A DNA stretch of 64,000 bases, taken from the NCBI GenBank assembly GCA_934277615.1, contig CAKQUV010000001.1, positions 206,380 through 270,379 on the forward strand, in the 5' to 3' direction. This DNA is from an uncultured Clostridia bacterium (GTDB lineage: Bacteria > Bacillota > Clostridia > Christensenellales > CAG-917). The first letter of the stretch is position 1. The number at the start of each line of letters is the position of its first letter. The position numbers were made by a program, and so were the translations under genes. The notes beneath the pieces are model-generated. The model was not told the DNA's origin, did not search any database, and worked only from the letters and a program-made list of their open reading frames with translations. Of this stretch, positions 28,187 to 57,799 are shown piece after piece.

Positions 28187-28221
28187 ATAAACAATATATA
28201 TGATTAATTCAGAATTAATAC

Positions 28222-28476: not shown

Positions 28477-28481
28477 AATTT

Positions 28482-29381: not shown

Positions 29382-29384
29382 ACT

Positions 29385-30140: not shown

Positions 30141-30178
30141 AAAAACAGTGTAGCATACAAAAACGCTTTTTTCAATGA

Positions 30179-30199
30179 TGTTTCACAAAAAGTTTCACG
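30179..30199. promoter_or_regulatory. two parS half-sites (TGTTTCAC, GTTTCACG) in the parA upstream region
   Basis: gatgtttcacaaaaagtttcacgaaaaa lies 40-60 nt upstream of the parA start codon (30140). Confidence 0.4.
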
Positions 30200-30254
30200 A
30201 AAAATTTATAAAAAATGGAAAATAATGTTATTAAATTACTTTCCATTCAAAATT

Positions 30255-35846: not shown

Positions 35847-37796
<1,950 letters not shown>

Positions 37797-37806
37797 GGAG
37801 TGAATT

Positions 37807-40386
37807 ATGGCAAACATAAGAGACGATAAAAACAACGAATATGTCCAACATATAGCCAATTCGACCGTCAAAGACGTCGAAATCAACGGCGAGCTCAAAA
37901 AATCGTTCATCGCATATGCGATGGCGGTCAATGTATCCCGTGCAATCCCCGACGCAAGAGACGGTTTGAAGCCCGTTCACAGACGTATTTTGTACGCTAT
38001 GAGCGAGCTCGGACTCACTCCCGACAAGCCTTATCGTAAGTGCGCTATGGTCGTCGGTGAAGTGCTCGGTAAATACCATCCCCACGGCGACAGTTCCGTA
38101 TACGACGCAATGGTACGTCTTGCGCAAGACTTCTCCATTCGTTGCCCGCTCATCGACGGACACGGCAACTTCGGCTCAATCGACGGCGATCCTGCGGCTG
38201 CTTACCGTTATACGGAGGCAAGACTTTCCAAAATCGCGTTGGAAATGATCCGCGACATAGACAAAAAGACGGTTGATTTCTATCCCAACTTCGACGACAC
38301 GCGCGAACAACCGGTTGTATTGCCCTCCCGTTTCCCCAACTTGCTCGTAAACGGCTCAGACGGTATCGCGGTCGGTATGGCGACGTCCATTCCTCCGCAC
38401 AATCTCGGCGAGGTTATAGACGCGTCTGTCGCGCTCTTGAAAAACCCCGAGGCGACCGTTGAGGAACTTATGGAATATATCCCTGCTCCCGACTTCCCGA
38501 CAGGCGCGCTCATTTTGGGCAGACACGCAATCAAACAAGCGTACAAGACGGGTCGCGGCGGTTGCATTTTGCGCGCTAAGGCGGAAATCGAAGAGATGGC
38601 AAACGGCAAGAGTCGTATCGTCGTAACCGAGATTCCTTACCAAGTCAACAAAGCAAAACTTATCGAGAATATCGCAGACCAAGTCAAAGACAAACGCCTT
38701 GAAGGCATCAGCGACCTTCGCGAAGAAACGGACCGCCACGGTATGCGTATCGTTATCGAACTCAAAAAGGACGTCAACGCGCAAGTTTTGCTCAATCAAC
38801 TTTACAAACAAACGCAAATGCAAACCAATTTCAGCATGATTATGCTTGCGTTGGTTGACGGTGTGCCTCGCGTTCTCAATCTCAAAGAGATTTTGGAATG
38901 CTACATTGCGCACCAAAAAGACGTTATCGTACGCCGCACTCGTTTCGACCTCGAAAAAGCTCAAGAAAGACAACATATCTTGATGGGCTTGCATATCGCG
39001 CTTGAAAACATCGACGCTATCGTGGAATTGCTCAAAAAATCCCGCGACAGACAAGACGCTATGGCAAAACTTATGGAAAATTACGGCCTTAGCGACAAGC
39101 AGGCGGCGGCAATACTCGACATGCGTTTGCAACGCTTGACAGGACTCGAAGTCGAGAAAATCAATGCGGAACTTGAAGACCTTGACAAGCAAATCGCATA
39201 CTTTACAATGGTGCTCGGCAGCGACGAAGAGATTGTCAACATCATCATCAAGGAGCTTGGCGACATCAAGGCGCAATACAACACTCCCAGACTTTCCGAG
39301 CTCACTTACGATTACGGCGATATCGACATCGAGGACCTTATCGAAAGAGAGGACGTTGTCATTTCCATGACTCACGGCGGATATATCAAGCGTATGCCTG
39401 TTGCAGAGTATAAGGCTCAACACAGAGGCGGCATGGGTATCACCGCTCACAAAGCCAAAGACGAGGACTTTGTGGAGAGAATTTTCACGTCCAATACTCA
39501 CGAAAGACTTATGTTCTTCACCAATAAGGGCAAGGTATTCACCCTCAAGGCGTATGAAATTCCCGAGGCGACTCGCAACGCTCGCGGCAGAGCGGCTGTA
39601 AACCTCTTGCAACTCGAACAAGGCGAGAAGATTCAAACCATTCTTCAAATGCCGGAAGAGAGAGAAAACAAGTTCCTCATGCTCGCAACCAAGCAAGGTC
39701 TTATCAAAAAGACTCCGCTCGAGGAATACGATTCAATCAAACGTAACGGCAAGATCGCAATCAAGTTCAACGACGATGACGAACTTATCGGCGCAGCGAT
39801 TACAACCGGCAACGACGAAGTGCTTGTAGCCTCCAGCGCAGGTATGAGCATCCACTTCAACGAGAAAGACGTGCGCCCCGTCGGCAGAACGGCAATGGGC
39901 GTCAAGGCGATGAACATCGACGACGGCACGACGCTTGTGGCGTTCGACGTAGTGCGTGAAGGCGACGAAATCCTCACCGTTACGTCAACAGGTTACGGCA
40001 AGCGCAGCTCCATTGCGGACTACCCGATTCAAAACAGAGCGGGCAAGGGCGTCAAAGCAGGAGTGTTCAACGACAAGACGGGTACGCTCGTGTGCTTGAA
40101 GGTTATACCCGCGGATACCGACGTCATGATGATCACCGACAGCGGCGTTATCATCAGAGTGCAAGCGGATGAGATTAGCAAGATCGGCAGAGCAACGCAA
40201 GGCGTGCGTATCATGAAACTCAAAGACGACAAGTTCAAGGTTATGGCAATCGCGCTCACTCCTCACGAGGACGAAGAAGAAGGCGTCGAATACGACGAGG
40301 AAGGCAACCCGATTGTAGTAGCGACCGATGACAATCAAGCGGTCGAGGGTGAAGTGGAAGAAACCACTCAAAACGACCAAGAATAA
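37807..40386 (+). CDS. gyrA: DNA gyrase subunit A
   Basis: 859 aa. [19 protein letters not shown], catalytic region [12 protein letters not shown]-terminal beta-pinwheel repeats and an acidic tail. Confidence 0.97.
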
Positions 40387-40444: not shown

Positions 40445-42139
40445 ATGGAAGAAAGAAAATGGTTCAAAGAGATGTCCGTTTATCAGATTTGGCCTCGTTC
40501 GTTTTGCGACGGAAACGGCGACGGAATAGGCGACCTCAAAGGCGTTTTGAGCAAGCTCGAATACATAAAGAGCCTTGGCAGCGACGCCATTTGGTTCTCG
40601 CCGCTTTACGCCTCGCCGCAAGCGGACTATGGTTACGACATAGCGGACTATTACAACATCAATCCCGAATACGGCACTCTCGACGACTTCAAAGCCGTGC
40701 TTGAAAAAGCGCACGCTCTCGGTATGCGCGTCGTTATGGACCTGGTTATCAACCACACGTCCGACCAACACGATTGGTTCAAAAAGAGTTGCGCGCGCAT
40801 AGAGCCTTACACAGATTTTTATATCTGGCGCAAAGGCAAGGGCAAAGACGGCAAAAAAGTTCCCAACAACTGGATGTCCACTTTCCCCGGCAGCGCATGG
40901 GAATACAACGAGCAAAGAGGCGAGTTTTATCTCCACCTCTACGCCAAAGAGCAGCCCGACCTCAATCATGACAATCCCAAGGTGAGAGAGGCGGTCAAGG
41001 ACGTTATGCGTTATTGGCTGGATATGGGCGTCGACGGATTCCGCGAGGACGTCATTACGCAAATCAGCAAGGTCGAAGGTTTGCCCAACGGCAATTGGCT
41101 TATGCCTGCTTCGAGGGGTATGGAGCATTACAACAACGGCCCTCATATTCACGAGTATTTGCAAGAATACCGCGAGGTTTTGAAAGATTACGATGCGTTC
41201 CAAGTGGGAGAAGCACCGCTTATGAACGTCAAGACCGCGCTTACCTACGTCAACGAGAACAAGAAAGAGCTCGATATGATGATATCCTTCCAACATATGC
41301 AAGCGGATTGTATTATTATCGAGTGGGTGCGTACGCCGTTTAATTTGCCCAAACTCAAAAAAACCTTCAACGAGTGGCAAACCAAACTTTACCATAGAGC
41401 GTGGAACGCCAACTACCTCGAAAACCACGACCACGCGCGTATTATTTCAAGATACGGTAACGAGAATTTCAGAGTGGAAAGCGGCAAAGCGCTCGCAATG
41501 GCTTACACTTTCCTCAGCGGCACGCATTTTGTCTATCAAGGACAAGAAATCGGTATGACCGCACTCTATTTTGACAAATACCCCAAAGGCACGGATCCGT
41601 GGGCGCAATTCAAGGACGTTTCCACCTTCTGCGTGCGCGATTTGATGCGCAAGTTCGGTTTCAGCGACAAACATATCCTCAAAGTCGCACACACCGCCGC
41701 TCGCGACTGCGCTCGCACACCCGTACAATGGAACGGTCAGAAATACGCGGGTTTCTCCACTGTCGAGCCGTGGTATACCGTCAATCCCAACTATCCCCAA
41801 GTCAACGTGGAAAACGCCTTGCAAGACGAAAACTCTATCTGGTATTTCTATCAACGCGCAATGGCGCTCCGCAAAGAGTACAAGGATACCGCGATTTACG
41901 GACAGTTCAAACTCTACTTGCCTCACGACAAGCAACTTTTCGTCTACGACAAGATAGCCGAGGACGGCAAGTCCAAGCTCACCATCGTCATCAATCTGTC
42001 CGCCAAACCCGTCCGCGCTTCTAGGGTAACCAAGTATATTCCGACCGACGCAACGGAGTTGTTGTCCGTCTACGACGATAAGTGGGATAAGGAGTTGCGT
42101 CCTTATTCGGGCAAACTCTTTTACACACAACTTCACTAA
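40445..42139 (+). CDS. GH13 alpha-glucosidase (oligo-1,6-glucosidase / trehalose-6-phosphate hydrolase-like)
   Basis: WFKEMSVYQIWPRSF, VMDLVINHTSDQHDWF, GVDGFREDVI, YLENHDHAR. Start at ATG 40445, 5 nt after GGAGGA (alternative 40433). Confidence 0.9.
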   Translation: MEERKWFKEMSVYQIWPRSFCDGNGDGIGDLKGVLSKLEYIKSLGSDAIWFSPLYASPQADYGYDIADYYNINPEYGTLDDFKAVLEKAHALGMRVVMDLVINHTSDQHDWFKKSCARIEPYTDFYIWRKGKGKDGKKVPNNWMSTFPGSAWEYNEQRGEFYLHLYAKEQPDLNHDNPKVREAVKDVMRYWLDMGVDGFREDVITQISKVEGLPNGNWLMPASRGMEHYNNGPHIHEYLQEYREVLKDYDAFQVGEAPLMNVKTALTYVNENKKELDMMISFQHMQADCIIIEWVRTPFNLPKLKKTFNEWQTKLYHRAWNANYLENHDHARIISRYGNENFRVESGKALAMAYTFLSGTHFVYQGQEIGMTALYFDKYPKGTDPWAQFKDVSTFCVRDLMRKFGFSDKHILKVAHTAARDCARTPVQWNGQKYAGFSTVEPWYTVNPNYPQVNVENALQDENSIWYFYQRAMALRKEYKDTAIYGQFKLYLPHDKQLFVYDKIAEDGKSKLTIVINLSAKPVRASRVTKYIPTDATELLSVYDDKWDKELRPYSGKLFYTQLH

Positions 42140-42245
42140 ATAGCGAATAACTGCGGCAGAGCCGTTCGCTGGTCAACTCATTTACGATTAGTAAATTAGG
42201 GTTGCCCCTCGGACGGCTCTTTCTTGTTCTTCATCTATTTATCGC
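42136..42245 (+). repeat. family-A element, copy A2
   Basis: ctaaatagcgaataactg + stem agagccgt (42158-42165) + core caactcatttacgattagtaaattagggttg (42174-42204) + stem acggctct (42213-42220) + ttcttgttcttcatctatttatcgc. Its first TAA (42137-42139) is the stop codon of the glucosidase gene. Confidence 0.8.
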
Positions 42246-42373: not shown

Positions 42374-42587
42374 GTCATTCCGAGGAGCAACGAATGTTGC
42401 GATGTGGGAATCTAGGCGTTAGCCGCACACACCAAGCAAGCGATATAGCGGAACTGTGGTATGAGTTTTATCCTTGCAAGACTGATAGCGTGTATCGGTT
42501 GCGCGGTAGTAAAGCAAAAATCTAACGTGGCACTTGGCAATACACACAAGTGTGTGTTGCCATTGCCACAGTGACGATTTTTGCTTG
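42374..42587 (+). repeat. family-B element, copy B2 (core plus long hairpin)
   Basis: Core gtcattccgaggagcaacgaatgttgcgatgtgggaatctaggcgttagccgcacacaccaagcaagcgatatagcggaactgtgg...ctgatagcgtgtatcggttgcgcggtag (42374-42509). Then agcaaaaatc...gtggca..tacacac-aag-tgtgtgt..tgccac...gatttttgct. Confidence 0.8.
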
Positions 42588-44723: not shown

Positions 44724-45806
44724 ATGAAACTCGGTGTCGTAGGTTTGCCTAACGTAGGCAAGAGCACTTTGTTCAACGCAATCACCAAAGCGGGCGCGCA
44801 AGCAGCCAATTACCCGTTTTGCACCATAGAGCCCAACGTAGGCGTAGTCGCAGTTCCTGACGAGCGACTTGAAAAACTTGCCGCTCTTTACGACAGTAAA
44901 AAAATCACTCCCACTTCGCTTGAATTTGTGGATATCGCAGGTCTTGTCAAAGGCGCAAGCAAAGGCGAGGGCTTGGGCAACAAATTTTTGTCGCACATAA
45001 GGGAAGTTGATGCGATCGTGCATGTCGTAAGATGCTTTGACGACGCCAACATCACCCACGTTGACGGCAGCGTAAATCCTACAAGAGATATCGAAACAAT
45101 CAATTACGAACTTATCTTTGCGGATATGGAAACGCTTGAGCGCCGCATGGCAAACGCCCTTACCAAAGTCAAAGCAGACAAAAAATATCAAGAGGACGTT
45201 GACCGCATCGCCACCATGCAAAAATGGCTCGAAAGCGGAAAACCGCTCCGCAATCTCGATATGGACGAAGACTTCAAGCAGTTTGTGGACGAACAGTTCT
45301 TGCTCACGTCCAAGCCCGTCATTTACGTCGCCAACACCGACGAGGCAGGCATTGGCGGCAACAAATACACCGAGGAAGTCGAACGCATCGCAAAGGAAGA
45401 GAATACGGAGGCAATCGTGCTTTGCGCCAAACTCGAGGAGGATTTGAGCGAGCTTTCCGACGACGACCGCGCCATGTTTATGGAAGATTACGGTCTTAAA
45501 GAGAGCGGACTTGACCGCCTTGTCAAAGCGTCCTACAAACTATTGGGGCTTATCTCCTACCTCACTGCAGGCGAGAAAGAAACCCGTGCCTGGACGATTG
45601 TCAAAGGCACCAAAGCTCCCCAAGCCGCAGGCAAAATCCACAGCGATTTCGAGCGTGGCTTTATCCGAGCCGAGATAGTGGATTATGCAACTTTGCTCGA
45701 ATGCGGTTCTTTCAACGCCGCCAAAGAGCGCGGTAAAGTCCGCAGTGAAGGAAAGGACTATGTTATGCAGGACAACGATGTCGTCCTATTCCGGATTAAT
45801 GTATGA
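44724..45806 (+). CDS. ychF: ribosome-binding ATPase YchF
   Basis: 360 aa. [26 protein letters not shown]-terminal TGS-like domain. Confidence 0.95.
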
Positions 45807-46060
45807 TCGGAGACGGAACTTCGAGCCGCAAGGCGGCGAGCCTGTCGAGCGTCGAGGTAGACGGAATGTACAAGCGACTGCGCCGTGTTGTTGCGTAGCG
45901 GGCGCACAAAGCGCGTGGCATAATGAGTGTACGATACTTATCTATCCGAAGACCGAGTGTTGCCCCCCTGCGGAGCAGTTCCGTGGGTTCCCTCAAGCAG
46001 AGCGCAGAGGGGGAACGGAATAGGGGAAACACATGAGGAAGGGGGGGAAGGTGCATTTAA
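45806..46060 (+). repeat. family-C structured intergenic element, copy C1
   Basis: Starts at the last base of the ychF stop codon. Shares with C2/C3 the order cggag - hairpin gccgc-aag-gcggc (45825-45837) - gtacaag - hairpin tgcgcc-gtgttgtt...-ggcgca (45879-45906) - gcataat. Shares with C3 the block gtgggttccctcaagcagagcgcagagggggaacggaataggggaaacac (45983-46032). Confidence 0.7.
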
Positions 46061-46174
46061 AGAGTTACGACTACACTCTATTAGAACTGTAATCTCACGA
46101 AAAATTTGAGCGTGGCGGTCTAAAAAACTGTGCGCTTTTACTGAAATAATTAAAACAACTCATTTGGAGTAACT

Positions 46175-47857
46175 ATGTTTGAAAAAGAATTAGCAAAGGC
46201 GCTTGCCGTGGAAGGACTTTCCGAGCAAGACGTCGAAAATGCTCTCGAAACACCCAAAGACACTACGCTCGGCGACGTATGTTTGCCGTGCTTCAAGTTT
46301 GCTCGCGCAATGAGGCTTGCGCCGCCCATGATTGCCAACAAACTTTTGCCATACGTTCAATCTCTCGATTTCGTGCAAAAAGTCGAGGTTGTAGGCGGAT
46401 ATCTCAACGTGTTTTTTGACAGAAACACCGTTGCGAAGATGGCTCTTGCAAGCGCAAAGGACGAAAACGTCGGCGCAAGCAACGAGGGCGCAGGCAAGAC
46501 GATTTGCATTGACTATAGTTCCGTAAACATCGCAAAGCCTTTCCACATCGGGCACCTTTCCACAACCGTTATCGGCGGCGCGCTCTATCGTATATTCGAA
46601 CATTTGGGATACAAAGTCGTGGGTATCAACCACCTTGGCGACTGGGGCACGCAATTTGGAAAACTTATTGTCGCAACGCAAAAATGGTCCTCACTCGAGG
46701 ATGTCGCAAACAACGACGAATACTACCTCAACAGGCTTTATGTCCGCTATCACAAAGAGGCTGAGGAGCACCCCGAAATGGACGACGAGGCGCGCGCTTG
46801 GTTCAAGCGTATCGAGGACGGCGACAAAGAGGCGATTGCCTATTTTGACGTGTTCAAAGCGGTAACCATGAAAGCCGTCGGACGCATTTACGACCGCCTC
46901 AAAATCAAGTTTGACAGTTACGCAGGCGAGAGTTTTTACAATGATAAAATGGAAGCTTGCCTCGACATATTGAGAGAGAAGAATTTGCTTGTCGAAAGCG
47001 ACGGCGCACAAGTTGTCAACCTCGACGAATACGGCATGCCTCCGTGCCTTCTCGTAAAGGCGGACGGCGCGACTTTGTATGCAACTCGCGACATCGCCGC
47101 AGCGTATTATCGCAAGAAAACATACGACTTCTACAAATGCCTCTATGTTGTTGCATATCAGCAGAATCTGCACTTTAAACAACTGTTTCAAGTGCTTAAA
47201 CTTATGGATTTTGCAGGTGCGGACGATATGGAACACATTGCGTTCGGCATGGTTTCCATGGAAGACGGATCGATGTCCACAAGAAACGGCAGGGTGATTT
47301 GGCTTCAGGAAGTGCTTGACAAAGCCGTTGATAAGGCAAGAAAAATCATTGAGGAAAAGAACCCCGACACCAAAGACAAAGACGCAATCGCAGAGAGCGT
47401 CGGCGTGGGCGCAGTGGTATTTTCCGCGCTTTGGAACAACCGCATAAAAGACATCGTTTTCTCATACGACAAGGTGCTTAATTTTGACGGTGAAACCGCA
47501 CCTTACGTTCAATACACTTACGCTCGTTGCGCAAGCGCATTGAGAAAGGGCGGCGACATAGATTTTGACAACGTCGATCTTTCTTCAATCACCACCGACG
47601 AGGGCTACGAGGTCATCAAGAGTGTTCTCACTTTCGGCGATTCCGTACGTCTTGCCGCCAAACTCCGCGAGCCATGCTACGTTACGCGCCACGTTGTCGA
47701 CCTTGCCGAAAAATTCAATCGTTTCTACATCGATCATCGCATTCTTGTTGACGATGTACCAACGCGCAACGCCCGTCTTGCACTCACCCAAGCGGTGGCA
47801 AACGTAATTCATTGCGGATTGAGGCTTCTTGGCATCGACACCCCCAACGAAATGTGA
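46175..47857 (+). CDS. argS: arginine--tRNA ligase
   Basis: 560 aa. HIGH-type motif PFHIGHLS, KMSKS-like MSTRNG, and a C-terminal DALR anticodon-binding domain. Confidence 0.95.
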   Translation: MFEKELAKALAVEGLSEQDVENALETPKDTTLGDVCLPCFKFARAMRLAPPMIANKLLPYVQSLDFVQKVEVVGGYLNVFFDRNTVAKMALASAKDENVGASNEGAGKTICIDYSSVNIAKPFHIGHLSTTVIGGALYRIFEHLGYKVVGINHLGDWGTQFGKLIVATQKWSSLEDVANNDEYYLNRLYVRYHKEAEEHPEMDDEARAWFKRIEDGDKEAIAYFDVFKAVTMKAVGRIYDRLKIKFDSYAGESFYNDKMEACLDILREKNLLVESDGAQVVNLDEYGMPPCLLVKADGATLYATRDIAAAYYRKKTYDFYKCLYVVAYQQNLHFKQLFQVLKLMDFAGADDMEHIAFGMVSMEDGSMSTRNGRVIWLQEVLDKAVDKARKIIEEKNPDTKDKDAIAESVGVGAVVFSALWNNRIKDIVFSYDKVLNFDGETAPYVQYTYARCASALRKGGDIDFDNVDLSSITTDEGYEVIKSVLTFGDSVRLAAKLREPCYVTRHVVDLAEKFNRFYIDHRILVDDVPTRNARLALTQAVANVIHCGLRLLGIDTPNEM

Positions 47858-47860
47858 GCG

Positions 47861-47985
47861 CGCCAAACGGCGAATAGCTTTGTCAAAGCCCCTTGAACAG
47901 CAACCCTAACGTACTAATGCGTACGTGAGTTGATGAACAAGGGGCTTTTGACGCGATTGACTCCGTAACAATCGCTATTAAACGC
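47861..47985 (-). repeat. family-A element, copy A3 (whole unit inverted)
   Basis: Stem aaagccccttg (47886-47896) / caaggggcttt (47938-47948) around caaccctaacgtactaatgcgtacgtgagttg, which is the reverse complement of the A core. The flanks ccaaacgg... and ...caatcgctattaa align to the reverse complement of the A1 flanks. Starts 4 nt after the argS stop. Confidence 0.75.
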
Positions 47986-48042
47986 GCTCTTCATCCGTTT
48001 GGACGGCTCTTTTTATAAAGTGCAGTCGTAAAACCTTAATGC

Positions 48043-48382
48043 AATAACCCCCTCTTTCCGGACACGCCGGTATGTCCACTTCGGCGTTTGCGCACCGCAA
48101 TCCGCCTTGTTCGCTTTGGCTACAACACATTCACCGAATGTGTCGCTTAACGCGTCGCGCCCGACCACTCGTATAGGGGGCTTCTATACAAAAGTGAACA
48201 TCGCTCGCGGGGGAGACATTTGGCACTCACATAGACAAGTATCGTTCACTTGTTATGCCACTCGTTCGCCAACGAAAAGAACAACACTCGTTGGCTCACT
48301 TGTACTAATCGTCAAGTTCGGCGCAAAAACGCTCGTCGCCTTGCGACTCGAAGCTCCGAATAAGCACATACCGTTAATAAGT
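48043..48382 (-). repeat. family-C element, copy C2 (inverted relative to C1/C3)
   Basis: The reverse complement shares with C3 aacggtatgtgcttattcggag (48354-48375), gtacaagtgagccaacgagtgttgttcttttcgttggcgaacgagtg and ccggcgtgtccggaaagagggggttatt (48043-48070). The middle part diverges. Confidence 0.75.
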
Positions 48383-48402
48383 ACGCTCCGAACAAGCTTC
48401 CG

Positions 48403-48678
48403 TTCGGGTGTGGGTGTCCCGCCCATATAGTCATTCCGAGCGAAGCGTGGGAATCAAGGCGTCAGCCGTACACACCAAGCAAGCGATATAGCGAAATTGT
48501 GGCGGGAGTACTTATCCTTGCTTGAACTGATAGCGTGTATCGATTGCGCGGTAGTAGAGCAATAAATCAAGCAAGGCTCTCGGCAATCGCCAAAAATATT
48601 CAAAGTTTGAGATTATATTTTTAATCAAAAATATGCAATTTTGGCGGTTGTCGTTGCCTCGGCGATGATTTTTGCTCT
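48403..48678 (+). repeat. family-B element, copy B3 (core plus long hairpin)
   Basis: ttcgggtgtgggtgtcccgcccatata + gtcattccgagcgaagcgtgggaatcaaggcgtcagccgtacacaccaagcaagcgatatagcgaaattgtgg...ctgatagcgtgtatcgattgcgcggtag (to 48554). Then the imperfect hairpin agagcaataaatc...ggcaatcgccaaaa...ttttggcggttg..gcc...gatgatttttgctct. Confidence 0.8.
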
Positions 48679-48929: not shown

Positions 48930-49262
48930 ATGCAAAAGCAATATAGACTCAAAAAAAGAGCGGCGTTTGCCTACGTTTATCGCAAAGGCGAAAAAGCCTC
49001 TGCAAGAGACCTATTGCTTTTGAGTGCCAAATCCAAGGAAGGATTGAAAATCGGTCTTTCGGTGTCCAAGAAAGTCGGCGGAGCGGTTACGCGCAACCGA
49101 GTAAAACGCCTTCTTCGCGAGGCAATCAAGCCTCTTGAGGCGAACATAGACGCCGGATATATGTACGTAATCGTGGCATATCCCTCGATTGCGGACAAGA
49201 CGTATCAAGACGTATGTCAATCAGTCGAATACGCTTTCAAAAAAGCGGGGAAGTTGCAATGA
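48930..49262 (+). CDS. rnpA: ribonuclease P protein component
   Basis: 110 aa, basic. RLKKRAAFAYVYRKG...VSKKVGGAVTRNRVKRLLREA. Follows rpmH. Confidence 0.9.
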   Translation: MQKQYRLKKRAAFAYVYRKGEKASARDLLLLSAKSKEGLKIGLSVSKKVGGAVTRNRVKRLLREAIKPLEANIDAGYMYVIVAYPSIADKTYQDVCQSVEYAFKKAGKLQ

Positions 49263-49504
49263 TAAAGAGGTTTTGCCTTTGGCTGTTGCTTTTGTACAAG
49301 CGCACGCTGTCGCCGATTACGGGCAATCATTGCGCATACACTCCCACCTGTTCGATGTATTCGTACGACGCGATAAGCAAATGGGGCGCGTTTATCGGCA
49401 TATTGCTCACCATGGAGCGACTTTTGCGATGCACGCCGTTTGCGAAAGGCGGTTTTGATCCCGTCAAAGAGAATTATCGAGGAAGAATCAAATGGCTAAT
49501 TTGA
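49259..49504 (+). CDS. yidD: membrane protein insertion efficiency factor YidD
   Basis: ATG 49259 overlaps the rnpA stop (ATGA). LLLLYKRTLSPITGNHCAYTPTCSMYSYDAISKWG is the YidD signature. Confidence 0.85.
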   Translation: MIKRFCLWLLLLYKRTLSPITGNHCAYTPTCSMYSYDAISKWGAFIGILLTMERLLRCTPFAKGGFDPVKENYRGRIKWLI

Positions 49505-50748
49505 GTTATCCGCAAAAGCGCAAAATACAAGTCTATCTTATCGCGGCTATGATCGCGATACTTTGCTGTATTTTGGTTGCTTGCAACAGCGACAACTCGT
49601 ACAGTGTAGTGGGCGAAAAGGTAAGCGAGCCGACGCACTTTATGGCAAAATTCATGATCGTCGTAAACGACGCTCTCGGCGGCGGAACGGCAAGTTTCGG
49701 CTGGACGGTCGTTTTGTTTACGGTCTTTTTGCGTCTCATTCTTTCCCCGTTCGATATTTGGCAAAAAGTGATTGCCAGAAAGAACAGCAAAGCAATGGAG
49801 CGTATGCGTCCGCAACTCGAAGTTTTGCAAGAAAGATACGCTGACGACAAGCAACGCTTGCAACAAGAGCAAATGGCTCTTTACAAAAAGGAAAAATATT
49901 CCACGTTCGGCATGTGTTTGCCCACGATAATCACGTTTGTCGTGTTCTTTGTCGTTTTTGCAGGATTCAGACAAATGGTCGGCTATCAATTCGCCAAAGA
50001 CTACAAAGAGTGCGTCAACGCATATGACGCGTCCATCTCTCAACAAATCGAGCAGGCGAAGGACAGCGAAGAGTGGTCGGGCGCAATTGTCGATAACGGC
50101 GACGGCAAATATGATTTGGACGATATCGCAAAGACGGAAAAGGGCGCAGAGTTTTTGTCAGCGGCAAAGAGCAACGCGCAAGACGCAGTCTATAAAGTCT
50201 ATTATTCCGACGAGCAAGTTACGATCAGAAGTTGGCTTTGGATAAAGAATATCTTTGTTTCCGACAACTGGGCAAAATCCGTTCCCGATTTCGAAACCGT
50301 TACCGGTCAATCCGGTATGGCAACTTCAAAACTTACGGGCATCACCAAGGACGAATACAACACCGTTATGGCAAAAGTTCTCGGCACCGGCGGATACGGC
50401 AAAGACGGCAAGTGGAACGGACTTCTTATATTGCCCGTATTGTCCATTGCATTGAGTTTGCTCTCAACCGTGCTTATGTCCAAGGCTCAAGGTCAACCGC
50501 CGGCACCGGCTCCCAAAGCGGAAGGCGAGGCAGCGGATAAAGCCAAAGCGCAACAACAATCCATGAAGATGATGCAGTACATTATGCCGATTATGTTCGG
50601 TGTGTTCGCACTCTTCTATTCGGGCGCGTTTGCGCTATATATGTTCACAAGTTCGCTTTGCGCGATATTGTTCCAATTGACGTTCAATCTCATCGCAAAG
50701 ATAGTGGACGTTCAAAGAGAAGGCAACAAGGGCGTTGCCAAAAGATAG
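49492..50748 (+). CDS. yidC: YidC/SpoIIIJ membrane protein insertase (lipoprotein-type N-terminus)
   Basis: 418 aa. Lipobox ILVAC. 60-kDa-insertase core helices (FGWTVVLFTVFLRLILSPF, MKMMQYIMPIMFGVFALFYSGAFALYMF). Confidence 0.9.
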   Translation: MANLSYPQKRKIQVYLIAAMIAILCCILVACNSDNSYSVVGEKVSEPTHFMAKFMIVVNDALGGGTASFGWTVVLFTVFLRLILSPFDIWQKVIARKNSKAMERMRPQLEVLQERYADDKQRLQQEQMALYKKEKYSTFGMCLPTIITFVVFFVVFAGFRQMVGYQFAKDYKECVNAYDASISQQIEQAKDSEEWSGAIVDNGDGKYDLDDIAKTEKGAEFLSAAKSNAQDAVYKVYYSDEQVTIRSWLWIKNIFVSDNWAKSVPDFETVTGQSGMATSKLTGITKDEYNTVMAKVLGTGGYGKDGKWNGLLILPVLSIALSLLSTVLMSKAQGQPPAPAPKAEGEAADKAKAQQQSMKMMQYIMPIMFGVFALFYSGAFALYMFTSSLCAILFQLTFNLIAKIVDVQREGNKGVAKR

Positions 50749-50756
50749 GAGTTAAA

Positions 50757-51641
50757 ATGGAAAAATCAATAGAAACACAAGCGTCATCGGTGGATATCGC
50801 CGTCGAAAAGGCGTTGGTGGAACTCGGTGTGTCGAGAGACAAGGTTGACGTCGAAGTGCTTGCCAAGGGCGGATTGTTCTCCAAGGCAAAAGTCAGAGTT
50901 ACCGTCAAAGACACTGTAGCCGACAAGATGGCAGAGTTTATCAACGGCACGCTTGAACGTATGGGGCTCACCTCTCGCGCGACGGTGGAAGAGAAAGACA
51001 ATACTCTTTACATCACCATCCAAGGCGACGACAGCGGTGTTGCAATCGGATACAGAGGCGAGGCGCTCGACGCATTCCAATATCTTGCGCTCACCTTCCT
51101 CAACGAGCATAAATGCGACTTCAAGAAAGTCGTCGTGGATTGCGAAAACTATCGCGAAAAACGCAAAGAAACACTCACCGCGCTTGCAGAAAAACTTGCG
51201 CAAAAAGCAGTCCGCTTGTGCCGCAAGATCGCTCTCGAACCAATGAACCCGTTTGAAAGACGCATCATTCACAGCGCGCTTGCAGACAGCGAAATTGCAG
51301 ATACCGAAAGCGTGGGCGAAGAACCTCAAAGATATATCGTCATCATCCCCAAGGGGGTTGAGCTCAAAGACCAACGTCCCATCAAGAACGGCGAGCGCGA
51401 GCCGAGAAAAGACTCTCGCAAAGGCGGCAAAAACGACCGCCGCGACAGAAATAACGGCAAAGGCAGACGCGACGACAGAAGAAACGACCGTCGTGAGCGC
51501 AAACCGCGCGAAGAAGAGGACGAAGTCGCAGACGGCAGAGTATATCGCGGATATTTCACCGAGCAAGACGATTTCGTCAAGCCCGTAGCGCAATCCGGTC
51601 CGCCCAAATTCAAGAGCTTTGGCGGAAAAAAGAAATTCTGA
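50757..51641 (+). CDS. jag: Jag/KhpB RNA-binding protein (Jag_N-KH-R3H) with an Arg/Asp-rich C-terminal extension
   Basis: ATG 50757 with TAGGAG RBS. The R3H motif MNPFERRIIHSALAD is followed by about 95 extra residues (RKDSRKGGKNDRRDRNNGKGRRDDRRNDRRERKPREEEDE...). Confidence 0.85.
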   Translation: MEKSIETQASSVDIAVEKALVELGVSRDKVDVEVLAKGGLFSKAKVRVTVKDTVADKMAEFINGTLERMGLTSRATVEEKDNTLYITIQGDDSGVAIGYRGEALDAFQYLALTFLNEHKCDFKKVVVDCENYREKRKETLTALAEKLAQKAVRLCRKIALEPMNPFERRIIHSALADSEIADTESVGEEPQRYIVIIPKGVELKDQRPIKNGEREPRKDSRKGGKNDRRDRNNGKGRRDDRRNDRRERKPREEEDEVADGRVYRGYFTEQDDFVKPVAQSGPPKFKSFGGKKKF

Positions 51642-51642
51642 A

Positions 51643-52995
51643 ATGAGTACGATAGCGGCAATTTCATCACCGATAGGTGCAGGTGGTATCGGCATAGTAC
51701 GTGTTTCCGGCGAGGAAGCACTGCGCATCGCCGATGCCATTTTCTATTTTGCGCATCCCGCCCTTGACGACGGGACGGTTTGCCGTATCCAAGGCGTGAA
51801 GCAAAACTGGAAACCGCTTATGATGAACTTCGGTACTTTCCACGCCACGGAGTTTTGCGACAAAGGCTATGCCGTGTATTTCCCCGGTACGCGCGCGTAT
51901 ACGGGCGAAGATACGGTTGAATTTTATTTGCACGGCGGCGTACGCATTATGCAAGGCGCGCTCGACACGCTTCTTGCAAACGGTGCGGTTATGGCAAAGA
52001 ACGGCGAATTTACCAAGCGTGCGTTTCTCAACGGGCGGCTTTCGCTTGCCGACGCAGAGGGCGTTATAGATATGATACAAGCCGAGAGCGCAGCAGGCGT
52101 AAAGGCGGCGTATAGGCTCATGCAAGGCGACGTGTCCAAAAAAATCAATTCCGTTTGCGACGAGTTGGAAAAGATAATCGCCACACTTGAGGCGACGCTC
52201 GATTATCCCGACGAAATGGAGGACGAGGTTTTGCCGTCGTTGCCCGACGAGATGAACGGAGTGCTCAATGAGGTCAATGCGCTTATAGCCACGGCAAAGA
52301 GCGGTAAAATCGCAAAATACGGCATAAACGTTGCGCTTGCAGGCAATGCCAATGCAGGCAAATCATCGCTTATGAACGCGCTTCTCAAAGAGGACAGAGC
52401 CATTGTTACGGACGTTGCAGGCACCACGAGAGATACGGTTGAGGATAGTTTCGAGTGCGACGGCGTAAAGATAAATCTTATCGACACCGCAGGCATACGC
52501 CAAAGCGACGACATTGTGGAAAGCAAGGGTATAGAGCGCGCCAAGAAAGCTTTTGAGGGCGCAGACGTGATTTTGCACGTCATCGACACAACAAGCGGCG
52601 ACAAGGATAATATCGAACTTCCCGAGGGCGTAATCACGTTTGACGTTTTCAATAAATGCGACGAAACCGGATTTGGAAAACACACTGCAGACAACCAATT
52701 CGAAATAAGCGCCAAGACAGGCAAAGGCGTTGATGCACTTGCGCGCGCAATAGCCGCTTTATATAAAGATGATAAGGTTGAGGGCGGTGAGATAATTACG
52801 TCGCAAAGACATGTATCGGCACTTTATCAAGCAAAAACGGCGCTTGAAAGTGCGATTGAGTCGTTAGACGATACAATCGATTGCACGTTGATTGATTTGC
52901 GTCGCGCCTATGACGCACTCGGCGAAATCACCGGAAAGACCGCAACACAAGACGTTGTGGATAGCATATTCTCTCGTTTTTGCGTGGGTAAATAA
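51643..52995 (+). CDS. mnmE: tRNA modification GTPase MnmE
   Basis: 450 aa. G1 motif GNANAGKSSLMNAL, DTAGIR, and the C-terminal CVGK motif. Confidence 0.93.
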   Translation: MSTIAAISSPIGAGGIGIVRVSGEEALRIADAIFYFAHPALDDGTVCRIQGVKQNWKPLMMNFGTFHATEFCDKGYAVYFPGTRAYTGEDTVEFYLHGGVRIMQGALDTLLANGAVMAKNGEFTKRAFLNGRLSLADAEGVIDMIQAESAAGVKAAYRLMQGDVSKKINSVCDELEKIIATLEATLDYPDEMEDEVLPSLPDEMNGVLNEVNALIATAKSGKIAKYGINVALAGNANAGKSSLMNALLKEDRAIVTDVAGTTRDTVEDSFECDGVKINLIDTAGIRQSDDIVESKGIERAKKAFEGADVILHVIDTTSGDKDNIELPEGVITFDVFNKCDETGFGKHTADNQFEISAKTGKGVDALARAIAALYKDDKVEGGEIITSQRHVSALYQAKTALESAIESLDDTIDCTLIDLRRAYDALGEITGKTATQDVVDSIFSRFCVGK

Positions 52996-53150
52996 AAGCC
53001 CGCAACGATAGAGATATCCGCAATAGATAGAAATATAATAGAATGCGAACTTAAATATAACGAAAAATCACGGCAATTTTCAGCGATAAAACGTAAGGAA
53101 ATTTGTCGTATAAAGATAATAATTTTTGCGATCAATCGCGATATACAACT

Positions 53151-54983
53151 ATGCAAAATTTTGACGCTGTCGTAATAGGAGGCGGACACGCCGGTGTCGA
53201 AGCCTCGCTTGCGCTTGCAAGACTCAATAAAAAAACGCTTATGTTGTGCCTTGATTACGGCACTGTTTCTTTGATGCCTTGCAATCCTGCAATCGGCGGA
53301 ACGGCAAAGGGACATCTCGTCAAAGAGGTGGACGCGCTCGGCGGTCAGATGGGGCTTTCGGCAGACAAAGCGCTTCTTCAAATAAAAACGCTCAATTCGG
53401 CAAAAGGCCCTGCGGTGTTCTCGCTCAGAGGACAAGAGGACAAGGCGGTTTATCACGAACTTATGCTCGATATAGTGCGCAATCAACCCAACCTCACCGT
53501 GCTTGACAAAGAGGCAAGCGAAGTTGTGGCAAAGGACGGCAAAGTGTGCGCCGTGCGCACGACGGACGGTGAAGAGTACGCCTGCAAAGCGGCGGTGCTT
53601 GCCACGGGCGTATATCTCAACGGAGCGATAATCATTGGCGATTACGTCAAAAAGAGCGGCCCTAGCGGATTTGAAAGCGCAACTCATCTTACCGACAGCC
53701 TAAAAAATCTCGGAGTGCAAATGCGCCGTTTCAAGACCGGCACGCCTGCGAGAATTTATCGCGACAGCATAGATTTTTCCAAAATGGAAATCCAAAGAGG
53801 GGATGACAGCGACAGATTCTCCTTTATGTCGCCTCACGAGGTCTTTAAGGAAGAGCCGTGTTGGCTCACATACACCAATGCCCAAACACACAAGATTATA
53901 CTTGACAATATAGACCGTTCCCCGCTTTACAACGGCACCATTCAATCTGTAGGTCCGAGATATTGTCCGTCAATCGAAACCAAAGTTATGCGTTTCAAGG
54001 ACAAGGAAAGGCATCAGATTTTTGTGGAACCCGAGGGCGCTGATAGTGAGGAAATGTACATACAAGGTATGTCCACGTCCTTGCCGCACGACGTGCAAGA
54101 GCAGATGTACAGGACGTTGCCCGGGCTTGAGAATTGCCGCTTTGCCAAATACGGCTATGCAATAGAATACGATTGCCTTGATCCGCTCGGCATGTATCCG
54201 TCGCTTGAAAACAAAGCGGTGGAGGGGTTGTTCTCGGCAGGACAGATGAACGGCAGCAGCGGATACGAAGAGGCGGCGGCGCAAGGTCTTATCGCAGGTA
54301 TCAACGCGGCAAGAAAGATTGACGGCAAAGAGCCGTTTGTATTGCGCAGAGATCAGGCGTATATAGGCGTGCTTATCGACGACCTTGTTACAAAAGGAAC
54401 CAACGAGCCGTACAGAATGATGACCGCGCGCGCGGAACATCGCATATTCTTGCGCCAGGACAATGCTGACATGCGCCTCACCCCCATAGGAAGAGAGATC
54501 GGTCTTGTCGATGACGCACGCTATCAACGCATGCTTGACAAAAAGGCAATGATAGAACGCGTTATCGAGTTTTCATCCAAAACCATGTCCAGGGATATCG
54601 TTGAGGGCTTGTTTAACGAACTCGGTGAAGAGATGCCGCAAAAAACGCCCACGTTTGCCGAGATTTGCAGACGTCCGAGCGTGGAGGCGCAGCACTTGAG
54701 AAGATTTATCGATTTCGAGTGCGACGACGAAGCATTGAAGGCGGCGGCAATCGAACTCAAATACGAGGGCTATCTCAAAAAAGAGCAATCCGCAATCAAT
54801 GAGCAGAAGAGGCTGGAAGGCAAGCTTATCCCCAAAGATTTCGATTACAACTCAATCAAAGCGCTAAGGATAGAGGCAAGACAAAAGCTTTCCGAAATCC
54901 GTCCGCTCAATCTCGGTCAAGCGTCCAGAATATCCGGAGTATCGCCTGCGGACATCGCTGTGTTGATTGTCGCATTGCGATAA
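53151..54983 (+). CDS. mnmG: tRNA uridine 5-carboxymethylaminomethyl modification enzyme MnmG (GidA)
   Basis: MQNFDAVVIGGGHAGVEA FAD motif. 610 aa from ATG 53151 (the ORF track extends to a TTG at 53103). Confidence 0.95.
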   Translation: MQNFDAVVIGGGHAGVEASLALARLNKKTLMLCLDYGTVSLMPCNPAIGGTAKGHLVKEVDALGGQMGLSADKALLQIKTLNSAKGPAVFSLRGQEDKAVYHELMLDIVRNQPNLTVLDKEASEVVAKDGKVCAVRTTDGEEYACKAAVLATGVYLNGAIIIGDYVKKSGPSGFESATHLTDSLKNLGVQMRRFKTGTPARIYRDSIDFSKMEIQRGDDSDRFSFMSPHEVFKEEPCWLTYTNAQTHKIILDNIDRSPLYNGTIQSVGPRYCPSIETKVMRFKDKERHQIFVEPEGADSEEMYIQGMSTSLPHDVQEQMYRTLPGLENCRFAKYGYAIEYDCLDPLGMYPSLENKAVEGLFSAGQMNGSSGYEEAAAQGLIAGINAARKIDGKEPFVLRRDQAYIGVLIDDLVTKGTNEPYRMMTARAEHRIFLRQDNADMRLTPIGREIGLVDDARYQRMLDKKAMIERVIEFSSKTMSRDIVEGLFNELGEEMPQKTPTFAEICRRPSVEAQHLRRFIDFECDDEALKAAAIELKYEGYLKKEQSAINEQKRLEGKLIPKDFDYNSIKALRIEARQKLSEIRPLNLGQASRISGVSPADIAVLIVALR

Positions 54984-55511: not shown

Positions 55512-55640
55512 ATTTTATGGAACAAAACAGCAAATAACTGTGTCAGAGCCACCCGACCATCAACTCATTTACGATAAGTAAACTAGGGTTGCTGTTCGGG
55601 TGGCTCTTCCTTGTTCTTTATCCGTTTTGTTCCATAAAAT
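55512..55640 (+). repeat. family-A element, copy A4, with a 17-bp outer stem
   Basis: attttatggaacaaaac (55512-55528) pairs with gttttgttccataaaat (55624-55640). Inner stem agagccacccga (55545-55556) / tcgggtggctct (55596-55607). Core caactcatttacgataagtaaactagggttg (55561-55591). Confidence 0.8.
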
Positions 55641-55733: not shown

Positions 55734-55794
55734 TATATCTCTTTGACGGCTTTATATTATGGCGTCATTAAGCGATATACTTCGTCAAAGTCTA

Positions 55795-56152
55795 CTTATA
55801 AACGGTATGTGCTTATTCGGAGTTGGAGGCGCAGGGCGCCGACCGCATCGAGCGCCAAGCTTGACGATAAGTACAAGTGAGCCAACGAGTGTTGTTCTTT
55901 TCGTTGGCGAACGAGTGACATAATAAGGGAAATGTCCCTATCTATGCGCGTGCCGTAAGGAGCGAAGCGACGGAATAGCGATTGCTACGAAGTCAATCGC
56001 GTCGCCTGTCCCCCGCTACGCGGTCGTCGTGGGTTCCCTCAAGCAAAGCGCGGAGGGGGAACGGCGATAGGGAAAACACCTTGAGGAAAGGGAAAATTGC
56101 ATTAAATATTTATTTTTATAAATGCCGGCGTGTCCGGAAAGAGGGGGTTATT
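55795..56152 (+). repeat. family-C element, copy C3
   Basis: Shares its 5' and 3' blocks with C2 and its 3'-central block (56029-56079) with C1. Hairpins ggcgc-agg-gcgcc (55828-55840) and gccaacga-gtgttgttcttt-tcgttggc (55881-55908). Confidence 0.75.
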
Positions 56153-56188
56153 CTATTTAGAGGAGTTATGACGCTCTTTATTTTTCAT

Positions 56189-56218
56189 GGAATATTCCGC
56201 AATTATTAATTATTAATT
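56189..56218 (+). repeat. 30-nt repeat ggaatattccgcaattattaattattaatt (copy 2)
   Basis: 29/30 identical to 28447-28476. Ends 8 nt from the glmM stop codon. Confidence 0.8.
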
Positions 56219-56226
56219 CATAATTA

Positions 56227-57594
56227 TTAATTTCCATTTTCCGTCATAATCCTCTTTATGTCCTCAAATATCATCTTGTATTCCGACACAAAGCACTCGT
56301 ACGTTACGCGGATGAACGGCTCTGTTCCGCTGGGGCGGACGATTAGGCGACCGCTGTTTGCGTAGAGGTTGTTGACAGCGGTGATTTTTGCTTGAAAGTC
56401 GTCGCTTATTATGGTTTGCGACGGGTTTTGAGCGGTTATATTGAATTCGAGCATGGGGTAGGGCGTGTATTTAGGCAGACTTCCGAGCGTGCGCTTGACT
56501 TCCAGAATGCTGAGTGCAGTGATAAGTCCGTCGCCTGTATTTGCTCTGTCGAGCATGAGGATATGTCCGCTTTTTTCGCCGCCGAGCAGACATCCTTGCG
56601 CATTGAGCGCGTCAAGAACGTGCTTATCTCCGACGTCCGTGCGTATGAGTGCAGTGTTGTGGTATGCAAGTTCCCTTTGCAGTTTCGTGCCGGTCAGAAT
56701 AGTGCCCACGACAAACCGCTTTTTGAGCTTTCCTTGCAGCCTGTACAAAGTGGAAAGAGCAAGCAACATAGCGTCGCCGTCGTATATTTTGCCGTCCACC
56801 ACGCCAAGCACTCTATCTCCGTCTCCGTCGAACGCAAAGCCGATTTCGTCTTTTTTCACACGTCGTGCAAACTCTTCTATATGCGTGCTTCCGCACCCGA
56901 CGTTGACCTTTTCTCCGTCTCGGAAATTATGCTCCGCGCACACCACCGCCCCGAGGGACATAAACACCGCAGGCGCAAGCGTGGCAAAGCACCCGTATGC
57001 GCAGTCCAGACGAATTTTGTATCCGTCAAAGCGCGGAAACATGGATTTTACATGCTTTGCATACAAAAATTCCGCCCCGTCGACAATGCGAATCCTATGA
57101 TTTTTCACGGACGGCGTAATGTGCAAATCGCTCAGAATCTCGTCCTCCGTCAGCGTATCTGCACACAAATCCTCGTACAAAAACGCCACGGATTCCTCTT
57201 TCGGATTGTTCATAAGCTCAAACACTGCGCTGTCCAGCACGCACTCTTCCTCGCTTGAGAGTTTTCTTCCGCCTTTGCCGAACACTTTTAGCCCGTTGAA
57301 TTCCGGCGGATTGTGCGACGCGGTGATCATAATCGCATAGTCGGCTTTTTGCGATTGCGCCGTATATGCGAGGGCAGGGGTAGGCAAAACTCCCGCAAGC
57401 CAAATCTGCGCCGAGCCTTCCAGCAACCCTTTGCACAGTTGCTTTTCTATATCTTGCGAGCTTTCTCGCACGTCGCGCGCGACAATCACCTTTCCGCCTT
57501 TTTGCGAAATAGCCTTGCCCAAAAAATACGGAATATCCGCGCTTATAAGCGTATCCGCTTTGTTTCTTATACCGTCTGTACCGAAATAATGCAT
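56227..57594 (-). CDS. glmM: phosphoglucosamine mutase (phosphohexomutase family)
   Basis: Start set at ATG 57594 (MHYFGTDGIRNKA...), giving 455 aa. Active-site loop ITASHNPPEFNGLKVF. The 534-aa ORF-track version runs across the trxB terminator and is rejected. No SD upstream. Confidence 0.8.
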   Translation of the reverse strand: MHYFGTDGIRNKADTLISADIPYFLGKAISQKGGKVIVARDVRESSQDIEKQLCKGLLEGSAQIWLAGVLPTPALAYTAQSQKADYAIMITASHNPPEFNGLKVFGKGGRKLSSEEECVLDSAVFELMNNPKEESVAFLYEDLCADTLTEDEILSDLHITPSVKNHRIRIVDGAEFLYAKHVKSMFPRFDGYKIRLDCAYGCFATLAPAVFMSLGAVVCAEHNFRDGEKVNVGCGSTHIEEFARRVKKDEIGFAFDGDGDRVLGVVDGKIYDGDAMLLALSTLYRLQGKLKKRFVVGTILTGTKLQRELAYHNTALIRTDVGDKHVLDALNAQGCLLGGEKSGHILMLDRANTGDGLITALSILEVKRTLGSLPKYTPYPMLEFNITAQNPSQTIISDDFQAKITAVNNLYANSGRLIVRPSGTEPFIRVTYECFVSEYKMIFEDIKRIMTENGN

Positions 57595-57747
57595 ATAATC
57601 ACTATATGAAAAAGCGTATGTCAAAGCGCGCCATATTTTGTCGAAAAAGCGATTATTTGCACGAAATCGACGGACATTATTACGAAAAAAGATTTGTGAA
57701 AATAGGACAATCAGGAAAAACAGAAAGAACTCAAAACAACCGAAATA

Positions 57748-57776
57748 CAAAAAAGAGCGAGAGTTTTCTCGCTCTT
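57748..57776 (-). terminator. intrinsic terminator after trxB
   Basis: Minus strand: agagcgag-aaaact-ctcgctct followed by T6. Confidence 0.7.
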
Positions 57777-57799
57777 TTCTATATCGCACCAACTGATTT

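Follow-up and report, generated by a model that had tools for sequence, protein, structure and literature searches.

The BOX elements of Streptococcus pneumoniae, which are built on the plan boxA-boxB(n)-boxC and are described together with RUP and SPRITE, were judged to be parasitic rather than host-specialised (PMC3049150). The Bacillus cereus group has the repeats bcr1-bcr18, of which bcr1 is known to be transcribed and to have a genomic distribution that is not conserved, with compensatory changes that preserve its RNA structure (PMC3184786), and the units of REP/BIME and REPIN/RAYT are thought to be recognised as one-strand hairpins by a once-per-genome HUH transposase (PMC3184786, PMC3733652). 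Here we describe family C, a family of structured intergenic elements with three copies (C1, C2 and C3) in a 64-kb stretch, hereafter the window, of contig CAKQUV010000001.1 from an uncultured Clostridia bacterium of the Christensenellales. Family C is new, in that it is previously undescribed, and its kind (BOX/bcr/BIME-like) is familiar. On balance, and with modest confidence, C1 was regarded as a copy of a lineage-specific, non-coding, non-autonomous, modular family of interspersed repeats of 280-400 nt that resides in the intergenic spacers of Christensenellales. A preliminary description of the window had given the elements a length of ~250-360 nt and had proposed either a new structured non-coding RNA (ncRNA) or a BOX-like composite repeat. 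That proposal is supported by the lack of a match in Rfam and by strong covariation, and, as the family proved to be a high-copy dispersed repeat of a whole clade, its composite-repeat half is tentatively favoured.

Like BOX, family C is lineage-restricted, intergenic, non-coding and composed of ordered modules varying in presence and number; it has extensive predicted RNA structure and no transposase of its own, varies between relatives and is probably co-transcribed with its neighbours. This is a likeness of kind, established by description and not by sequence. Family C differs from BOX in its host, its larger size and its compensatory change at many positions, and its fold, in which two multi-helix domains with tandem G.A pairs and invariant loops take the place of a simple boxA/boxC pairing, is more RNA-gene-like than that of BOX. 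The bcr elements are likewise interspersed repeats, of 100-400 nt, of a Firmicutes lineage, but bcr1 is flanked by 5-bp direct repeats, which are not evident in family C, and folds as a two-stem cruciform as opposed to at least eight helices, the kinship again being one of kind and not of sequence. REP/BIME arrays share with family C the mosaics of short motifs in intergenic clusters, the high copy number and the structure-forming units, whereas REP units are GC-rich palindromes of 20-40 nt with a GTAG/CGTC tag, and the ~280-nt unit of family C is ten times longer and not palindromic, its helices being separated by conserved non-palindromic blocks. No RAYT gene was found, whole genomes lying beyond the search. 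HEARO/omegaRNA and the IS200/IS605 PATEs (RF02033; bioRxiv 10.1101/2023.03.14.532601) resemble family C as ornate, multi-copy, intergenic and often protein-less elements of ~300 nt with strong covariation. In contrast to these, family C has no Rfam match, and the copies and their flanks (~240 loci) showed no adjacent iscB, tnpB or tnpA, no left-end/right-end (LE/RE) pair of subterminal hairpins, no target-adjacent motif (TAM) and no guide-like segment.

Distribution of family C in the window and across genomes

A covariance model built from 63 copies and run on the 64 kb hit the sites of C1, C2 and C3 and nothing else at E<=1, scoring 149 bits for the core of C2 (48217-48350), 147 bits for the core of C3 (55825-55959) and 100 bits for C1. 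C1 (45807-46086, + strand) lies between ychF (44724-45806) and argS (46175-47857), its first base being the base right after the ychF stop codon, and its similarity to other copies extends from -79 to +201 around position 45885. It is 5'-truncated, without the leader, and carries its own type of the second hairpin (P2) and a type-3 3' domain. C2 (~48015-48396, - strand) lies downstream of argS, convergent with it, and is a full copy with leader, canonical helices P1-P3, a type-1 3' domain into which a further module is inserted, tail and terminal hairpin. C3 (~55792-56183, + strand) lies downstream of the rnpA-yidC-jag-mnmE-mnmG block, convergent with a phosphoglucomutase gene (56227-57831, - strand), and is likewise full, with leader, canonical P1-P3, an optional insert, a type-3 3' domain and two tandem tails. 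All three had been placed correctly in the preliminary description, except that its interval for C1 was short: the terminal hairpin (46060-46079) and the following ATTAGAA were omitted, and the element runs to ~46086. Its account of the copies as mosaics of shared ordered blocks was borne out by BLASTN within the window (E-values 1e-8 to 1e-45). Between C2 and C3, a 163-nt stretch at the 5' end is 84% identical and a 61-nt stretch at the 3' end is 82% identical; identity between C1 and C3 reaches 88% across 65 nt (45982-46044 against 56028-56092), and that between C1 and C2 is 71% across 136 nt. Rfam 15, whose families include T-box, RNase P, SRP, tmRNA, HEARO and group II intron domains, reported only a tRNA-Asn in the whole window at gathering thresholds and no match on any copy even at E<=10.

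Outside the window, family C is widespread, with more than 200 intergenic places in ~30 uncultured Christensenellales-like gut metagenome-assembled genomes (MAGs). The pattern GTGTTGTT N8-30 CGNGTGRCATAAYRAG, which covers the P2 loop and the following block, retrieved 83 genome-contig stretches, 82 of them non-chance, from ~10 MAGs. The P2-loop pattern alone gave 10-19 copies per MAG, a lower bound owing to the strict motif, with many copies exactly at contig ends. The tail motif GGGGRAACACNTGAGGAAGGGGG gave at least 120 further exact-match stretches from ~25 MAGs, only of the same clade among the matches listed, including genomes with ArgS just 74-76% identical to that of the window. The repeat unit is ~280 nt, as similarity between copies typically extends from ~-85 to +190 around the anchor, often with other repeat modules attached. 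No match was obtained in phage, plasmid and viral collections, and a literature search on such elements in Christensenellales returned nothing relevant. The genome closest to the window is that of Christensenella sp. UBA767 (ArgS 98%). Bins L021/L026/L056/L064/L087 (CAVANK01), L091, L089/L101/L139, L113 and others, with argS 87-97% identical to the window's and family C present, bear the labels Butyrivibrio crossotus, Phascolarctobacterium succinatutens, Bacteroides sp., Bacteroidaceae and Anaeroplasmataceae, which look wrong.

Copies of family C are numerous and confined to intergenic regions, lie in both orientations and may be present or absent at a given orthologous site. The order ychF-argS is kept in 80 relatives, with a spacer that measures 4-40 nt in distant ones; in the close clade it measures 200-750 nt and is occupied by mosaics of several families of repeats. 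In this spacer family C is in + orientation in some genomes, in - orientation in CP091723, and absent in others with up to 96% ArgS identity, the spacer being empty or filled with other repeats in L121 (96% ArgS identity), L098, L156 and L161. The copy that follows argS has - orientation in the window and + orientation in L087. For 86 copies, the upstream gene was co-oriented in 44 and opposed in 28, and the downstream gene co-oriented in 37 and opposed in 36, which gives no strong rule. C1-type copies do precede argS, with + orientation, in the window and in L086, L087, L091, L093-L096, L106 and L159, as would suit a cis-regulatory argS leader substituting for a T-box. We consider such a leader very improbable, and the distribution of the family contradicts it: Rfam gave no T-box or other riboswitch match, the same spacer is empty, occupied by other repeats or holds the opposite orientation in the relatives just named, C2 and C3 face gene ends, and the downstream gene is co-oriented in 37 of 73 surveyed cases, about half, at variable spacing. 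C1 should therefore not be read as an argS leader in annotation. The clade is a common uncultured one of the gut, with genomes of ~1.6 Mb in whose spacers repeat mosaics have raised the length from a few to several hundred bases. Family C is the largest and most structured of these spacer repeats, explains contig breaks in the clade's MAGs and serves as a clade marker.

Compensatory change and exchange of modules

Judging from the aligned copies, the sense strand can fold into two multi-helix domains in which stems are kept by compensatory substitution and loops remain constant. Two hairpins had been reported to vary by compensatory changes among the three copies of the window, and both were recovered as described. 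The first, corresponding to helix P1, reads GCCGC-AAG-GCGGC in C1, GTCGC-AAG-GCGAC in C2 and GGCGC-AGG-GCGCC in C3, and the second, corresponding to P2, has the stem TGCGCC/GGCGCA (45879-45884/45901-45906) in C1 and GCCAACGA/TCGTTGGC in C2 and C3, with a loop that begins GTGTTGTT in all three. In the alignment of 63 copies with a hand-curated structure of 32 pairs (91% paired), 204 double-change cells were counted versus 58.7+-7.3 in column shuffles (0/500), and slid-partner controls gave at most 40; the signal came from two helices, P1 and P2. With a covariance model of the 5' half, ~200 copies were found, namely 108 in the first set of loci, 31 near argS and 58 in loci selected by the tail motif. 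The alignment of the 108 copies contained 412 double-change cells versus 118+-10, with 22 pairs showing double changes versus 16.8+-1.4, and the 58 tail-selected copies, chosen independently of the P2 loop, contained 210 versus 61+-5.6. The covariation first noted in three copies is thus far above controls in all three larger alignments, and family C has the conserved, covarying secondary structure of a structured RNA. With hundreds of natural variants, three to four pair types at many positions and no entry in Rfam, it provides an unusually well-supported candidate fold, and if it were a discrete transcript, it would join the small group of large, multi-domain RNAs of bacteria whose function is unknown.

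The fold was assigned to the sense strand, as the tandem G.A/A.G pairs found in ~70% of P1 helices and the near-invariant G.U that closes P2 are sensible on that strand only; in P1, G.U and A.C combinations occur in a ratio of 11:2. Single-sequence folding energies were not clearly better than those of shuffled sequences (z = -1.0, -1.3 and -2.4), so the structural support is comparative. A long-range helix P0, pairing GAGCGCCG with GAGTGCCG, was paired in 88-91% of copies, with variation nearly all one-sided, and was not counted as shown; its strands are, moreover, direct repeats of each other, and a copy in L103 lacks everything between them. A pseudoknot between the P2 loop (UUCUUUU) and the tail (GAAAGAG) was dropped, as its single informative lineage, CP091723 (GAAAGAU), is uncompensated.

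The 3' half forms a second multi-helix domain that occurs in three interchangeable versions of one shared plan, in which C-rich and G-rich strands pair with each other and enclose one or two hairpins. The paired strands are TCTCCC-CCGC/GTGG-T-GGGAGA in type 1 (TCTTCC/GGAAGA in CP091723), TTCCCCT-CTTGC/GAGCAA-T-AGGGGAA in type 2 and GTGTTGCCCC/GGGGAAACAC in type 3, the version carried by C1. Types 1 and 2 next have a small hairpin. The three types then continue alike, with a purine-rich stretch that resembles a Shine-Dalgarno sequence, TTGCATTTA and a terminal hairpin. When 44 distinct copies of type 3 were folded with RNAalifold, the closing helix and two inner hairpins were recovered, with stems that vary by lineage and stay paired; hairpin a occurs as CUGC/GCAG, CGC/GCG or GCCC/GGGC, and the base of hairpin b as CCG/CGG, UCG/CGA or ACG/CGU.

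Modules are exchanged between copies. The modular-mosaic character recognised in the window extends to the whole family, in which 5' leaders, P2 subtypes, an optional 48-nt insert and the three 3'-domain versions combine freely. The 5' leader, made of three imperfect direct repeats, is present in C2 and C3 and absent in C1, and tails are sometimes doubled, as in C3. The C1-type P2 subfamily (stem TGCGCC/GGCGCA, with the variants TGTGAC/GTCACA and TGCGTGGC/GCCACGCA) is itself multi-copy and is found with any of the three 3' versions, as is any other P2 subtype. In UBA7588, P2 stems of the sequences GCAAACG, GCCGACA and GCCAACG occur six, seven and three times, respectively; as compensated variants are multi-copy within one genome, they were copied or converted rather than fixed site by site. 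A copy in L103 (4877-5060) retains P1 and a type-1 3' domain and has lost P2 and P3 between two GAGYGCCG direct repeats; given this copy, the family core may itself be a module between 8-nt direct repeats.

Proposed propagation of the element and rival explanations

From their distribution and the copied compensated variants, we infer that copies would arise by duplication to new sites, followed by recombination or gene conversion. Selection acts on the sense-strand fold, probably because a trans-acting factor recognises it; a protein acting in trans may recognise the single-stranded sense form, as RNA or as one DNA strand, during propagation, whereby the fold would be kept. Effects on neighbouring genes would be incidental, the element being a structured segment of any transcript that happens to run through it.

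Several results weigh against the reading of family C as a non-autonomous interspersed repeat. No recurrent paralog resembling a transposase, reverse transcriptase (RT) or integrase was found in ~240 loci (open reading frames (ORFs) lying up to 4 kb from the first 83 copies, and those of ~160 later loci), where clustering of flanking ORFs returned housekeeping orthologs and ABC transporters only, and the window genes include no transposase, integrase or reverse transcriptase. Terminal inverted repeats of at least 10 nt joining both ends were absent from C1, C2, C3 and a canonical copy in L021, and no clear target-site duplication emerged from comparison of the flanks, in which the longest common substring between 5' and 3' flanks averaged 7.2 nt within a copy versus 6.5 nt across copies (p=0.03), the excess coming from tandem neighbours. 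As no mobility machinery was identified, the term mobile rests on the distribution of the copies. Most copies are intact (70-158 bits), weak fragments amounting to ~13 of 108, and the loops and tail are conserved down to 74% ArgS identity, which is as compatible with a host function as with selection for propagation. As for the fold, the shuffle controls ignore relatedness, and the alignments of 108 and 58 copies were fitted to the covariance model. When the closing G.U of P2 is set aside, G.U and A.C number 12 and 14 in that helix, without excess, so the strand asymmetry rests chiefly on P1 and the G.A pairs. Scans for promoters and terminators gave nothing consistent at the copies of the window, and sigma-70 matches downstream of the tail were not enriched (best 7.66 versus 7.76 in shuffles). 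In a divergent lineage, L194 (~6060-6110, - strand) and also L195 carry TTGACA-16 nt-TATAAT after the tail, a consensus outward promoter, which in L194 occupies the place of the terminal hairpin of other copies.

That no mobiliser was identified, that decayed copies are few and that loops are deeply conserved keep two RNA-centred explanations in consideration. The copies might be multi-copy genes for trans-acting RNAs (small RNAs or scaffolds of ribonucleoproteins), kept by the host and each transcribed by itself, with the P2 loop and purine tail binding a host protein, the ribosome or target RNAs. We see this as a minority possibility of some weight, for at least eight helices with invariant loops make up a complex, non-palindromic fold with strong covariation, most copies are intact, the architecture is kept down to 74% ArgS identity, and neither transposon hallmarks nor a link to phages or plasmids was found; the tail also resembles an extended Shine-Dalgarno sequence, and in type 2 GGGGUGAU could pair with the 3' end of 16S rRNA. 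Against RNA genes stand the copies of the window, which have no consensus promoter upstream or terminator downstream, and the lack of enrichment for either at tails. One orthologous spacer shows presence, absence and opposite orientations, and 5'-truncated (C1), internally deleted (L103) and tandem or nested copies are common. Dozens of copies per 1.6-Mb genome, breaking assemblies, are moreover a pattern of repeats and not of regulators. Protein-less derivatives of insertion sequences (ISs) or retroelements that carry a functional RNA, either a PATE-like omegaRNA or bridge-RNA guide or a short interspersed element (SINE)-like RNA, could alternatively depend on a nuclease, recombinase or RT from another part of the genome that mobilises or uses them in trans. 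Such derivatives are rather doubtful, even though family C has the general profile of HEARO/omegaRNA at the time when its protein had yet to be recognised (ornate, ~300 nt, intergenic, multi-copy, mobile-looking and mostly ORF-less), omegaRNA-encoding PATEs acted on in trans are documented (bioRxiv 10.1101/2023.03.14.532601), and structure on one strand is what recognition of single-stranded DNA (HUH) or of RNA would lead one to expect. Neither HEARO nor any other Rfam family matched even at E<=10, the ends lack similar subterminal hairpins (P1 and the small 3' hairpin being unrelated), no conserved flanking tetra- or pentanucleotide was seen next to 5' flanks that are heterogeneous modules, no segment of the element matches flanking DNA, and no recurrent paralog of the size of tnpB, iscB, tnpA or an RT was present in ~1.5 Mb of flanks or in the window. 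Ends shared with a transposase-encoding element, as an IS-derived miniature inverted-repeat transposable element would have, were found neither in the ~240 loci nor in the window.

It is also conceivable, if unlikely, that family C is the RNA moiety of an unrecognised mobile or defence-like system, that is, a SINE-like retroelement or a set of orphan RNAs, serving as guides or scaffolds, that a once-per-genome protein would use in trans. In that case family C would represent a novel class of large ornate ncRNA, comparable to HEARO before IscB was understood, with the invariant P2 loop and the GAGGAAGGGGG tail as putative protein- or target-binding sites. A small protein gene in the antisense open frames, such as 45796-46056 (- strand, 86 aa), scarcely deserves credence. 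The longest open frame has a median of 85 of 105 codons versus 67.5 in shuffles, chiefly on the antisense strand. However, these frames fall in frame 0, 1 and 2 in 29, 20 and 9 copies, in keeping with the statement of the preliminary description that no reading frame is common to the copies, their translations are unrelated between frames, and indels of 1-2 nt are frequent. Antisense stops are few because the sense strand is purine-rich. A coding role is thus contradicted, and the antisense frames should not be called genes.

Anatomy of C1 and other features of the window

In C1, a putative 5' hairpin, CGGAG-ACGGAA-CTTCG (45808-45823, +), read from the sequence, is confined to copies with an 8-nt ACGGAAC insert. 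P1 (45822-45840, +; C-GA-GCCGC AAG GCGGC-GA-G) is a hairpin whose tandem G.A/A.G is closed by a covarying C-G/G-C pair. This outer pair is CG in 54 copies, GC in 37, UA in 4 and AU in 3, and the inner pairs show three to four Watson-Crick types. P2 (45868-45919, +; GTAC...GTGGC) is a long two-part hairpin, with a lower helix that covaries between GCG/CGC, as in C1, and GTCC/GGAC, an upper stem with three to four pair types at each position, and an apical loop (45885-45900) that retains TGTTG. In the P3 region (45919-45946, +; CATAA...hairpin...CTATC), the outer CATA/TATG pairs are near-invariant and the helix is uncertain, with no covariation support; an inner P3 stem was not supported, as its register shifts between copies and it shows no covariation.

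The type-3 3' domain of C1 (45957-46032, +) has the closing helix GTGTTGCCCCCCT/ATAGGGGAAACAC (45957-45969/46020-46032) around hairpins a (45968-45978) and b (45981-46018). It is followed by the purine-rich Shine-Dalgarno-like single strand ATGAGGAAGGGGGGGAAGG and then TGCATTTA (46033-46059, +); TGAGGAAGGGGG is the block of widest conservation in the family. The terminal hairpin AAGAGT-TACGACTAC-ACTCT plus ATTAGAA (46060-46086, +) makes the 3' end of the element; its stem is AGAGT/ACTCT, AGTGC/GCACT or GGTTTT/AAAACT depending on the genome, as read off the alignments. An end motif, CACTYATT/GCACTYRCT, is present at both ends of most copies. Clean boundaries did not come from comparison with empty argS sites, the spacers being too reshuffled by several repeat families, and an exact-protein look-up for site comparison returned only contigs identical to the window. 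The optional 48-nt module of C3 (55956-56003, +), with two hairpins, stands directly after G(C/T)GCCG in many copies and has a solo copy at 47950-47979 (repeat I7). Alternative pairings were noted in C1, between the C-rich strand 45960-45969 and the second tail G-run 46040-46049, and in C3, between the 5' strand of hairpin b (56034-56043) and the tail CTTGAGGAAA (56080-56089). These could be two-state folds and are not conserved in deep lineages.

Other repeats accompany family C. A second interspersed family of ~110-130 nt (25074-25179, 42135-42240, 55522-55627 and ~47860-47990) is internally palindromic (GCGCTATTGAGCG...GTCACGTACGC...AAGTACG...CTTCCTTGTTCTTCATC). It likewise occupies the ychF-argS spacers of many relatives, at times as two or three copies in tandem. 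A third family of ~110 nt (GTGGGAATCAAGGCGT...GCGATATAGCGAAATTGTGG...CTGATAGCGTGTATCGGTTGCGCGGTAG; 25282-25391, 42404-42512 and 48447-48557) adjoins other repeat families in three intergenic regions. The AT-rich motif AATTATTAATTATTAATT occurs at 28062-28089, 28447-28499 and 56189-56248 and upstream of many family C copies elsewhere. It is often followed by the GC hairpin GGGTGGGACACCCACACCC (~48404-48424, -), and the pair recurs as a module 5' of the family C leader. Two 29-nt direct repeats, AAAGGARCGCRATGCGTTCCTTTTGGCGC, which are terminator-like hairpins, lie 56 nt apart at 21418-21446 and 21474-21502, the second overlapping the 3' end of the tRNA-Asn gene (21497-21572, -).

The window covers the chromosomal origin region (dnaA, parB/parA/rsmG and gyrB/gyrA). 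Its origin neighbourhood (25496-30944, 35886-40386 and 48930-54983) contains dnaA, parB, parA, rsmG, gyrB, gyrA, rnpA, yidC, jag, mnmE and mnmG, and, as rnpA is preceded by argS instead of dnaA, the usual rpmH-dnaA junction is rearranged. Positions 1665-18807 are taken up by a run of very large ORFs (1057, 2153, 579 and 1149 aa), probably for surface proteins, which contain internal DNA repeats and domains of the types MBG, Listeria-Bacteroides repeat and Big_2.

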